NCBI GenBank assembly: GCA_017429165.1
Contig: JAFRPL010000032.1
Coordinates: forward strand, 173,007-237,006
From: Clostridia bacterium
Lineage (GTDB): Bacteria > Bacillota > Clostridia > Oscillospirales > CAG-382
Length of the DNA: 64,000 nucleotides
Reading direction: 5' to 3'
In this document: positions 41,250 through 53,550 of the stretch, piece after piece
Layout: every line of letters starts with the position of its first letter
Numbering within the stretch: position 1 is the first letter of the stretch
Made by a program: the position numbers and the translations under genes
The notes under the pieces: generated by a model
The model's database searches: none
Told to the model about the DNA's origin: nothing
What the model saw: only the letters and a program-made list of their open reading frames with translations

Positions 41250-41285
41250 AAAAAAGAAAAAAGCCGGGCGGGTGCCGCGCCGGCT
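41250..41285 (-). terminator. Terminator ending the NRPS-containing operon
   Basis: On the minus strand, AGCCGG-12 nt-CCGGCT is followed by TTTTTTCTTTTTT. It lies 20 nt after the stop of the last DUF4434 gene. Confidence 0.6.
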
Positions 41286-41304
41286 GTTTTGATATTTGAC
41301 GTAT

Positions 41305-42213
41305 CTATCTCTTTGCGCCGTAATATTCCCTGTACAACCGGTTGAGGTTACGGGCGGAAAGGTATATCGACTGCGGACTTAAAAAATGCGAAAACTCAAA
41401 AGTGATAAGCTTTTCGACAATGCCTTCTACCGCCTTTATCCTGCGCTTGAGCTGATCGAAAGGGATCGGATAATACAGACGCCGGACGTCGCGTTCGAAC
41501 GTTTCCACGTTGGACCACAGCGCGATACCGTGTTTATCGCATACGGTCTTGACCGCGGAAACGTAGGCGGCAAGCTCGTCCAGCGGCGCGGTGCCGTCCT
41601 GGAAAGCGCAGAAATCTATATCTTTGCCGCATTTTTCCCAAATATAGTCCCACTCTTCGGCGGTGCGTTCGGGAGTGAACGGTTCGGCGGAAGTGACGGC
41701 AGAACGGAAGAACGGGCTCACGAGCACGTATTTTTCCGGAGTAGAATCTTTATACAGCGCCGCCAGGCCGCCCATAGTATCTTTGAGGTTGAGTATCCTG
41801 TCGTATCCTTCGTGCGGGACATACCATCCCTTGAACGACGGGATATCGCCGTAGCGCGCGACGAATTCCTTAATGAACTTTTTGTTCTGAGCGATCTCGT
41901 TTTTCCAGTCGCCGTTGTTCCATGTGAGATTGCTTATATATCCGCCCACGAAAACGGTCATATTGCGCTTTGCCGCTTCTCTGAGTATGAATCCGGCAAA
42001 ATCGTCGTCTTCGTCTTTGAGCGTGGGAAATATCTTTGAAGGATAAATGCATTTGCCGCAGAACACGGCGCGGGCGAAAATGAGGGTGTCTATGCCGACT
42101 TCGGCCATATTGTCGAGCTCTTTCGCCCATTCTTCGTAAGTCCAGTTGGAACACGGGATATCATAAGTGACGTCGTCGATAAAAGTGCCGGTTATGGGAA
42201 AGTTCGTTTTCAT
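41305..42213 (-). CDS. DUF4434-like TIM-barrel (glycoside-hydrolase-like) protein, paralog 1
   Basis: 302 aa. FPITGTFIDDVTYDIPCSNWTYEEWAKELDNMAEVGIDTLIF...GWYVPHEG. Confidence 0.8.
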   Translation of the reverse strand: MKTNFPITGTFIDDVTYDIPCSNWTYEEWAKELDNMAEVGIDTLIFARAVFCGKCIYPSKIFPTLKDEDDDFAGFILREAAKRNMTVFVGGYISNLTWNNGDWKNEIAQNKKFIKEFVARYGDIPSFKGWYVPHEGYDRILNLKDTMGGLAALYKDSTPEKYVLVSPFFRSAVTSAEPFTPERTAEEWDYIWEKCGKDIDFCAFQDGTAPLDELAAYVSAVKTVCDKHGIALWSNVETFERDVRRLYYPIPFDQLKRRIKAVEGIVEKLITFEFSHFLSPQSIYLSARNLNRLYREYYGAKR

Positions 42214-42236
42214 AAGATTGTCTTCCGCCTTTCGGT

Positions 42237-52896: not shown

Positions 52897-53500
52897 AAAC
52901 GCTGCACTCCTCGATTGTAAAATCTTCGCTTTGCAGACACACAGATACGCTGTAACCGCATTTTGCAAAACTGTGTCTTATATATTTTTGTCCTTTGTAA
53001 ACGACTTCCCCGTCAAAAGGCAGCGCGGGAATGAGCGCGAGCCCTTCCGCGATACCGCCGCCTTCCGCCTTGGCAAGACTTTCCTTTGCCGTGAACAGAT
53101 CGAAAAATCCGCGCCCGCTTTGCGATTCCGCCGCCGAAAAGCAGACTTTCGCAAGTTCCCCGTACCCGCTTCGGTGTTTTTCCATATCCATGCCAACCTC
53201 GCGCGTACGGCAGAACGCTGCCGCGACGGTATCGACCGAATGCGATATGCTGAAGAAACCGCCGCCGGTGAACGGCTTGCCCGAGGGGGAACGCGCGATC
53301 GCCGCGCTTCGCCCGAAAAACCGCCTTGCAAGATACGCGCCGCCCACGGACAAAAGGCGGTCTTCTTCGCGCACGAACCTTTCGGCCTTTGCCTTTTCTT
53401 CGTCCGAAAGGACGGAAAGCATTTCTTCCAAACGGTTTTTTATTTGATTCAAATGCAAAAAATAAAGCTTTATTTTTTCCAAACCGCACTTCCGGAACAC
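52886..53500 (-). CDS. Sfp-type 4'-phosphopantetheinyl transferase
   Basis: Motifs SISHS, EVGMDME and TAKESLAKAEGGG. Overlaps the NRPS start by 11 nt. The start codon is uncertain (GTG 53500 or TTG 53482). Confidence 0.8.
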   Translation of the reverse strand: MFRKCGLEKIKLYFLHLNQIKNRLEEMLSVLSDEEKAKAERFVREEDRLLSVGGAYLARRFFGRSAAIARSPSGKPFTGGGFFSISHSVDTVAAAFCRTREVGMDMEKHRSGYGELAKVCFSAAESQSGRGFFDLFTAKESLAKAEGGGIAEGLALIPALPFDGEVVYKGQKYIRHSFAKCGYSVSVCLQSEDFTIEECSVYES

Positions 53501-53521
53501 AGATTATGATTTTTCAAGTTT

Positions 53522-53550
53522 ATTATATCATATAATATACGTTTTGTGAA
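53522..53550 (-). promoter_or_regulatory. Candidate promoter of the PPTase-NRPS operon (TTCACA-17-TATAAT, minus strand)
   Basis: Reverse complement: TTCACA (53550..53545) and TATAAT (53527..53522). Confidence 0.45.

Follow-up and report, generated by a model that had tools for sequence, protein, structure and literature searches.

A predicted peptide-aldehyde cassette with a partner-switching sensor in a putative composite operon of a Clostridia bacterium

The 64-kb stretch of DNA analysed here (the window), from the metagenome-assembled genome of an uncultured Clostridia bacterium (MBQ6183886-97, on a 254.5-kb contig), contains, at positions 41250..53550 of its minus strand, six closely spaced genes for a 4'-phosphopantetheinyl transferase (PPTase), a nonribosomal peptide synthetase (NRPS), a STAS-domain protein, a membrane sensor and two DUF4434 proteins. 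The question raised by this locus is whether the six genes constitute one integrated system, as was suggested by the original prediction, in which a sensor with antagonistic kinase and phosphatase activities is hard-wired to the production of a reactive peptide aldehyde. Our comparison with related contigs indicates that the six genes were joined by an insertion or deletion event and were not designed as one system: the four-gene core recurs in places that have no DUF4434 gene, and the DUF4434 pair in places that have no such core. The reading that we favour, with a probability of roughly 0.6, is that the unit is a composite operon consisting of a self-contained four-gene cassette and two passenger genes placed on a borrowed host promoter, the cassette acting through a post-transcriptional partner switch.

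The features of the unit and of its upstream border are the following.

53622..53885, minus strand: array of short hairpins ahead of the promoter (inverted repeats I1, I2 and I4-I6)
53590..53612, minus strand: upstream terminator insulating the unit from the genes upstream; perfect 9-bp stem with 7 GC pairs, then T8
53522..53550, minus strand: strong sigma-70-like promoter, TTCACA-17-(TG)TATAAT; agrees with the consensus at 11 of 12 positions, the top site within 14 kb in a consensus scan
52886..53482, minus strand: PPTase, 198 amino acids (aa) from a TTG start at 53482 with GGAAG ahead of it; the longest open reading frame runs from 53500
45691..52896, minus strand: NRPS, 2401 aa
45356..45655, minus strand: STAS protein, 99 aa
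43182..45359, minus strand: sensor, 725 aa
43146..43181, minus strand: right-hand cassette junction, AACGATC..CGAAAGGCGGC; 36 nucleotides (nt) matching the end of the DUF4434 5' untranslated region (5'UTR) and the ribosome-binding site of the relatives described below, with no terminator and no promoter
42237..43145, minus strand: DUF4434a, 302 aa
41305..42213, minus strand: DUF4434b, 302 aa
41250..41285, minus strand: terminator closing the unit; bulged stem with a folding energy of -21.6 kcal/mol (z = -3.2 against shuffles), then UUUUUUCUUUUUU (U-run)

The gene content is read directly from the open reading frames, which place six minus-strand genes between the promoter and the closing hairpin with its T-run, and independent gene calls on a metagenomic contig of 98.8% nucleotide identity (L081; the L-numbers denote genome and metagenome contigs compared with the window) returned the same genes with lengths of 198, 2401, 99, 725 and 302 aa. 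The six genes are very probably a single transcription unit, as judged from consensus scans and RNA folding, which agree with one promoter and one terminal terminator. The consensus terminator scan missed the closing site owing to its bulge, and this site was read directly from the sequence and from RNA folding. Terminator-like matches inside the unit (23 on both strands, compared with 21.7 +/- 4.7 in shuffles) were rejected as chance occurrences since their number equals the shuffle expectation and all of them lie within coding sequence. The consensus scan revealed no minus-strand promoter-like site between 43146 and 45700, i.e., from the 3' end of the NRPS gene to DUF4434a, and an Rfam search of the 41-54 kb region found no known RNA. 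The physical description given by the original prediction is thus accurate: six genes run from promoter to terminator with no internal hairpin plus T-run, the junctions from PPTase to DUF4434b are exactly as stated, with overlaps of 11 and 4 nt at the first and third and gaps of 35, 36 and 23 nt at the second, fourth and fifth, and the proposed upstream insulation is there, since both the terminator and a block of six inverted repeats within 53590..53885, upstream of the promoter, are present. The GC-rich hairpins of this block are punctuated by ATGATG/CATCAT-like spacers.

The composite nature of the unit emerges from the DUF4434 genes and their surroundings. DUF4434a and DUF4434b give full-length matches to PF14488 (159.6 and 169.4 bits, cut-off 30) and are paralogous, with about 77-78% nucleotide identity; DUF4434a is predicted to be a glycoside-hydrolase-like TIM-barrel protein. 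DUF4434b matches PDB entry 4h41 ("putative alpha-L-fucosidase") with an E-value of 3.4e-52, the fucosidase name being a structural-genomics label, and no functional or biochemical literature on DUF4434 was found. Relatives of DUF4434a with at least 90% protein identity reside on contigs L089, L090 and L091, which are about 94% identical in nucleotide sequence to window positions 43143..38700 and 38563..33554. These contigs carry DUF4434a, DUF4434b, Vut_1, SDR, SASA and further genes in common with the window, plus a GH28 gene, and contain no PPTase, NRPS, STAS or sensor gene. The blastn homology between them and the window begins at 43143, i.e., at the start of DUF4434a. Ahead of DUF4434a, contigs L089 and L090 have a promoter and 5'UTR (TTTTTGCGCCG...TTTTTGCAAAA...AATCTTCACAAAACG...TATGGTATAAT) that align, with indels and with the hairpin array included, with window positions 53612..53490 before the PPTase gene, and the promoter at 53522..53550 is orthologous to the promoter that in L089/L090 lies directly ahead of DUF4434a. 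The promoter and 5'UTR of the relatives thus match two separate parts of the window, 53612..53490 and 43181..43146, and according to this alignment the cassette between them (about 53490..43182, 10.3 kb) is located within the 5'UTR of a DUF4434a-DUF4434b bicistron. The DUF4434 genes would accordingly be passengers that belong to the backbone and stand outside the NRPS cassette. One 42-nt segment of the window, which includes the perfect terminator hairpin (53590..53612), is absent from L089/L090.

Two minor observations concern the same relatives. The hairpin array is also found at L090:9560-9870, ahead of the DUF4434 promoter. The GH28 (polygalacturonase-like) gene of L089-L091, located between the SASA esterase gene and a CLIPPER-domain gene, is not in the window (38563..38700), and this constitutes a second indel nearby.

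The cassette, for its part, has a life of its own. Its core (PPTase, reductase-ending NRPS, STAS protein and sensor with PP2C and kinase domains) recurs in 14 other genomic contexts, which span Clostridia, Lachnospiraceae, Erysipelotrichaceae and one Selenomonas-type cluster. The order PPTase-NRPS-STAS-sensor, or the same parts in unfused form, was found in L081, L083, L084/85, L086, L087, L088, L092, L093, L094, L096, L003, L015 and L052. None of the 14 other cassettes contains DUF4434, and their downstream neighbours differ every time. The arrangements seen are listed below.

L083: PPTase, NRPS, MatE+HATPase_c_2, STAS, sensor
L084/85: NRPS, STAS, sensor
L086: PPTase, NRPS, STAS, sensor
L087: PPTase, NRPS, MatE+HATPase_c_2, STAS, sensor
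L088: NRPS of the A-T-C-A-T-R type, STAS, sensor
L092 and L093: PPTase-NRPS-STAS-sensor, with NRPSs 65% and 63% identical to that of the window (the two closest orthologues); unrelated genes on the opposite strand come next
L094: 2995-aa NRPS, from a very abundant relative; MatE(+HATPase_c_2), NRPS, STAS, stand-alone HATPase_c_2, PPTase, acyltransferase, membrane SpoIIE
L095: Selenomonas-type 4015-aa NRPS and MatE+HATPase_c_2
L096: 3428-aa NRPS; STAS, NRPS, MatE+HATPase_c_2 beside a 5TMR-LYT-SpoIIE-HATPase_c_2 sensor

The cassette parts are thus present in unfused form in L094, and in L096 the output modules are alike and the input domain is different (5TMR-LYT). A further NRPS relative, of 4006 aa, is abundant as well. 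The architecture of the sensor, a membrane protein with PP2C and HATPase_c_2 domains, is very common (7762 matches at E<=1e-10). Among the sensors 39-48% identical to that of the window, on the contigs that were read, eight of eight are encoded directly after a reductase-ending NRPS gene and a STAS gene. The same link is reached when NRPS homologues of 41-65% identity are taken as the starting point, and it is found there across differing gene orders, with the parts fused or separate, and with another kind of input domain. A scan of genome contigs with the sensor alignment provides a background sample only, consisting of 80 loci among the matches listed, mostly distant PP2C sensors: 77 of these have no NRPS nearby, none has DUF4434, and the remaining three, more distant sensors linked to NRPS, belong to L003 (Erysipelotrichaceae), L015 and L052 (Lachnospiraceae bacterium 3-1). 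On these gene neighbourhoods, the link between the sensor/STAS pair and NRPS is strong, though it has exceptions. No homology to the promoter of the window is seen in the promoter regions of L092/L093, and a "GTATATTATA" stretch common to both was dismissed as an AT-rich chance similarity. As a separate observation, cysteine-peptidase genes (Peptidase_C1_2, C69, C1) adjoin several NRPS cassettes (L086:12175-13488, L095:21392-22996 and L096:18907-20547); their products could be targets, decoys or immunity factors.

What the cassette may produce can be deduced from its first two genes. The PPTase is of the Sfp type (Pfam ACPS, 30.8 bits, cut-off 25), and its N-terminus can be aligned with those of the PPTases of L092/L093; in NCBIfam it has weak matches to HetI/AusB, scoring 27 bits against a cut-off of 225 for the AusB-type partner. 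The NRPS is collinear with the domain order C-A-T-C-A-T-R (two Condensation, two AMP-binding, two PP-binding and one NAD_binding_4 domain in Pfam), with scores above the curated thresholds (282.5, 484.5, 70 and 108.4 bits for Condensation, AMP-binding, PP-binding and NAD_binding_4, respectively). Its motifs are intact, with HHxxxDG at 121 and 1126, GLTS at 950, GGTS at 1957, GATGFLG at 2041 and YVNSK at 2197, and a check of the catalytic residues found the T-domain serine, Asp235 and Lys517 of the A domains and the GxxGxxG and YxxxK signatures of the R domain. The A-domain codes, DAQVIGGVFK and DAMFSGVIFK, contain Asp235 and Lys517 and describe largely hydrophobic pockets; the positions were set by a GrsA fragment, and the same ruler applied to GrsA itself reproduced DAWTIAAICK. 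The top NCBIfam model is AusA (NF047350), which covers residues 399-2388, and the designation of the NRPS as an AusA equivalog was rejected, its 1043.4 bits being far under the cut-off of 2500. Judging by this architecture, the predicted product is a dipeptide aldehyde, and its two residues are probably hydrophobic. By analogy with the family (PMC12327764), the reductase domain would release it as an aldehyde through a two-electron reduction. The N-terminal C domain suggests a probably N-acylated product, by comparison with the gut NRPS family.

The other two genes of the cassette have the parts of a partner switch. The STAS protein is of the stand-alone, anti-sigma-antagonist type (Pfam STAS, 54 bits; TIGR00377, 58.9 bits, cut-off 53.45), and its EYISSAGLRL motif is unchanged in 10 cassette STAS proteins. 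This site is the position of the serine phosphorylated in SpoIIAA and RsbV, and the STAS protein is predicted to be the phospho-substrate of the sensor. Its stop codon overlaps the sensor start by 4 nt, and such an overlap of the STAS gene with a kinase-bearing gene is seen in nearly all cassettes. The sensor consists of a transmembrane helix, an extracytoplasmic Cache/PAS/GAF-like domain, a second transmembrane helix, HAMP, a SpoIIE-type PP2C domain and an RsbW-like HATPase_c_2 domain (Pfam SpoIIE, 156.5 bits; HATPase_c_2, 62 bits; HAMP weak). Weak RsbW and SpoIIAA matches were also obtained in NCBIfam. An alignment of 31 homologues shows little or no variation in the metal-binding residues of PP2C (D390, D408, D527, D575 and D576) or in the N, G1 and G2 boxes of the kinase (E628, N631/N632, N664-G665 and G684/G685/G687). 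The AlphaFold2 model built for residues 1-300 from a 59-sequence alignment has a pLDDT of 90.9; it contains a helical bundle and a five-stranded sheet, besides a transmembrane helix and a second long helix that leads into HAMP. When compared with the PDB by Foldseek, the outer domain gave weak though consistent matches to the sCache domain of a chemoreceptor (8py0, with formate), the Tlp3 dCache domain with amino acids, and GAF and IclR ligand-binding domains, and it may be regarded, with moderate confidence, as a Cache/PAS/GAF-like domain that binds a small ligand. Neither a cognate sigma factor nor another defined target of the kinase was found: the cassette and its flanks lack a sigma gene, as do the sister cassettes. 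No SigB/SigF-type sigma gene is present in the cassette or within 10 kb of it, and the sole sigma gene within the 64 kb encodes a 523-aa ECF-like fusion (14784..16355) located 27 kb away.

A candidate for a different kind of target is offered by the sister cassettes. A MATE transporter fused to an RsbW-like HATPase_c_2 domain is encoded next to the NRPS in eight loci (L083, L087, L003, L052, L015, L094, L095 and L096), and in seven further loci the same fusion is found beside sensor homologues without NRPS. The family comprises 223 clusters, and both domains are present in all of the top 120. Its members are about 585 aa long, have the RsbW-like domain at the C-terminus and are labelled as "ATP-binding protein" or "hypothetical" only. 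Four of these genes have the following positions.

L083:7947-9701: MATE+HATPase_c_2
L087:7941-9689: MATE+HATPase_c_2
L095:6234-7991: MATE+HATPase_c_2
L096:13535-15328: MATE+HATPase_c_2

We propose that the host promoter at 53550..53522 would transcribe the cassette and the DUF4434 genes as a transcript of about 12.2 kb that ends at 41285..41250. The PPTase would prime the NRPS, which would join two probably hydrophobic amino acids, with probable N-acylation by the N-terminal C domain, and the reductase domain would free the product as an aldehyde. A small ligand would bind the extracytoplasmic Cache-like domain of the sensor and, via HAMP, would shift the balance between PP2C and the RsbW-like kinase, both of which act on the STAS protein at its conserved serine. 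All subsequent steps are those that we infer: the phosphorylation state of the STAS protein would set the output of peptide aldehyde after transcription and without a cassette-specific sigma factor, with the unphosphorylated form binding an RsbW-like domain, which in the sister cassettes would be that of the MATE fusion and would lead to gated export. In the cassette of the window, either the NRPS itself or a MATE-kinase whose gene lies elsewhere may be the target. Post-transcriptional control is proposed because the promoter is of a housekeeping type and is common to the cassette-free relatives, because in L087 the PPTase gene overlaps an upstream NUDIX gene, and because no sigma gene accompanies any cassette; production or export would then be controlled post-translationally. 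Neither a MATE-kinase gene nor a SigB/SigF-type sigma gene is found near the cassette of the window. We also put forward, quite tentatively, a more general scenario in which the peptide-aldehyde clusters of gut anaerobes carry a dedicated STAS switch, set by a ligand-sensing PP2C/kinase membrane protein, whose target, instead of a sigma factor, is the RsbW-like domain on a MATE exporter, so that an external cue gates the release of a self-toxic protease inhibitor, the window being a minimal, MATE-less version behind a housekeeping promoter. The cue could be the product itself or its pyrazinone (autoinduction), or a signal from the host or the diet.

The NRPS itself is a member of an already known class of peptide-aldehyde NRPSs of gut Clostridia. 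Clusters of this class that direct the synthesis of (N-acyl) dipeptide aldehydes and pyrazinones were reportedly described by Guo and colleagues in Cell in 2017, and the rup (ruminopeptin) cluster of Ruminococcus bromii is said to have been described by Schneider and Balskus in 2018; both are summarised in PMC12327764. Like the window, the clusters of uncultured gut-type Clostridia combine a two-module NRPS, a terminal thioester reductase and a dedicated Sfp-type PPTase, with an aldehyde as the expected product; the nearest NRPS that we found is, however, only 65% identical. To our knowledge, no study has addressed what the STAS/PP2C-kinase and MATE-kinase genes do in gut aldehyde clusters, and published cluster maps may already show them without comment. 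Our literature search found no paper that ties partner switching to NRPS clusters, dipeptide aldehydes or MATE transporters. The conserved tie of the partner-switching module and the MATE-kinase fusions to NRPS appears uncharacterised. The NRPS clusters of gut Clostridia yield dipeptide aldehydes that are isolated as pyrazinones, and these compounds were characterised by heterologous expression, in vitro work and synthesis, isolation from the producers having failed (PMC12327764). The aureusimine (phevalin) synthetase AusA of Staphylococcus aureus, with its PPTase partner AusB, resembles the window system in the A-T-C-A-T-R part and in the presence of a PPTase, whereas the NRPS of the window begins with an additional C domain and both proteins score far lower against the respective models (1043 versus 2500 bits for the NRPS and 27 versus 225 bits for the PPTase).

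The cassette resembles the RsbU/RsbV/RsbW and SpoIIE/SpoIIAA/SpoIIAB modules of Bacillus in that its STAS antagonist has the conserved serine, in that it encodes both a PP2C phosphatase and a GHKL serine kinase, and in the translational coupling between STAS and kinase genes. Unlike in these modules, a single membrane protein, which also has an extracytoplasmic ligand-binding domain, unites the phosphatase and the kinase of the window; a cognate sigma gene is not present, and the module forms part of a biosynthetic cassette. A precedent for such fused antagonistic enzymes comes from Vibrio fischeri, where SypE is reported to unite an RsbW-like kinase and PP2C in one protein, which acts on the STAS-only protein SypA with a non-sigma output (PMC10120452, PMC4517449). 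SypE differs from the window sensor in being cytoplasmic, in having a receiver domain and in controlling polysaccharide and biofilm formation and not an NRPS or a MATE transporter; between SypE/SypA and the window proteins there are generic domain matches only and no sequence-level orthology. Other STAS switches with non-sigma outputs are covered in a review (PMC8256260) and in a report on the Anabaena HenR module (PMC13555669).

Several points weigh against the composite reading and the switch that it includes. The proposed output is missing from the window: a tblastn search of its cassette for a MATE-kinase returned only the HATPase domain of the sensor itself. The tie between MATE-kinase, NRPS and switch is incomplete elsewhere, as L095 has no STAS or PP2C gene within 8 kb of its MATE-kinase and NRPS genes, and a sensor 40% identical to that of the window, found by the genome scan in L001, follows a D-Ala-D-Ala ligase gene and not an NRPS. 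The Foldseek matches of the sensor domain are weak (E-values from 5e-4 to 1e-2, target-normalised TM score <= 0.5), and the two A-domain codes matched no assignable specificity. Co-transcription of the six genes is itself deduced from spacing and consensus scans. Finally, an insertion here and a deletion in the relatives would both fit the indel, which is seen directly in the alignments: the GC content of the cassette, overall and at third codon positions (GC3), is that of the backbone, its junctions show no integrase, transposase or clean target-site duplication, and a search of plasmids with the sensor gave no ortholog.

Of the alternatives, the one that survives best, though we consider it unlikely, is a classical anti-sigma switch, in which the RsbW-like domain would sequester a SigB/SigF-type sigma factor encoded elsewhere until the STAS protein is dephosphorylated, the output being stress genes, sporulation genes or the cassette genes themselves (through an unseen internal promoter). 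The trio of STAS, PP2C and HATPase_c_2 is the canonical one, the weak NCBIfam matches to RsbW and SpoIIAA point the same way, and the host is a spore-former with a GerA germination receptor gene (1027..2427, minus strand, 416 bits). However, no SigB/SigF-type sigma gene was seen in the inspected cassettes or within 10 kb here, in a search limited to the 64 kb of this genome, the housekeeping-type promoter is common to the cassette-free relatives, and the second RsbW-like domain, fused to MATE in eight cassettes, points to a target other than sigma.

A considerably poorer case can be made for all six genes forming one integrated system, in which the DUF4434 enzymes might, for instance, act in processing or releasing what the NRPS makes, or its signal. 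The tight spacing, the common direction, the lack of an internal terminator and the identical six-gene order in L081 speak for it, and tight operon spacing, it should be cautioned, does not equal functional integration. L081 is of the same lineage as the window (98.8% nucleotide identity), and in its DUF4434a (L081:12215-13123) codon 135 has changed from GAA to the stop codon TAA, which leaves open reading frames of 134 and 156 aa, a change that could reflect relaxed selection or an assembly error. Together with the absence of DUF4434 from all 14 other cassettes and the occurrence, in relatives of about 94% identity, of the DUF4434 pair behind the same promoter and with no cassette, this largely refutes the integrated reading. 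The conservation of the six-gene order in related genomes and metagenomes, which the original prediction named as a check, was not seen, as the order was found in no independent lineage and only in L081. What does stand of its proposal is the sensor with antagonistic kinase and phosphatase activities, seen in the PP2C and RsbW-like domains encoded beside the STAS substrate, the reactive peptide aldehyde predicted from the C-A-T-C-A-T-R architecture, and the joining of sensor and NRPS, since the sensor/STAS-NRPS link occurs in many unrelated genomes; the DUF4434 genes have to be removed from it. To call the system undescribed goes too far for the NRPS part, which falls into a known class, and is fair for the partner-switching link, for which no literature was found.

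That the neighbourhood of sensor/STAS pair and NRPS is a coincidence, with the pair controlling some other process, is scarcely credible: the sensor family is huge and 77 of the 80 listed loci have no NRPS nearby, but all eight sensors of 39-48% identity directly follow a reductase-ending NRPS and STAS gene (L001 being a near-relative exception), and the link holds from the NRPS side too.

The peptide aldehydes of gut Clostridia are protease inhibitors relevant to the host, and little is understood of how their producers regulate them. A sensor/STAS switch inside such clusters, often accompanied by a kinase-tagged MATE exporter, provides a handle on the timing of production and release. The composite operon of the window is, in addition, an example of a biosynthetic cassette that would be run from a borrowed host promoter.

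Two other parts of the window deserve mention. Directly downstream of the unit lies Vut_1 (40368..41214, minus strand), a member of the vitamin/queuosine-precursor transporter family, which has its own promoter-like site at 41214..41186 (10 of 12 matches, with TG) and no Rfam riboswitch match in its leader. Further away, a match to the Gut-1 small RNA (RF01706; 12782..12862, minus strand; 50.8 bits with a gathering score of 50) is located in a low-GC stretch (0.41-0.47). An HTH-TPR regulator, the ECF-like sigma fusion gene mentioned above and tRNA genes (12485..12564 and 17334..17407) belong to the same surroundings, and the region around 12000..16000 may be an integrated element.

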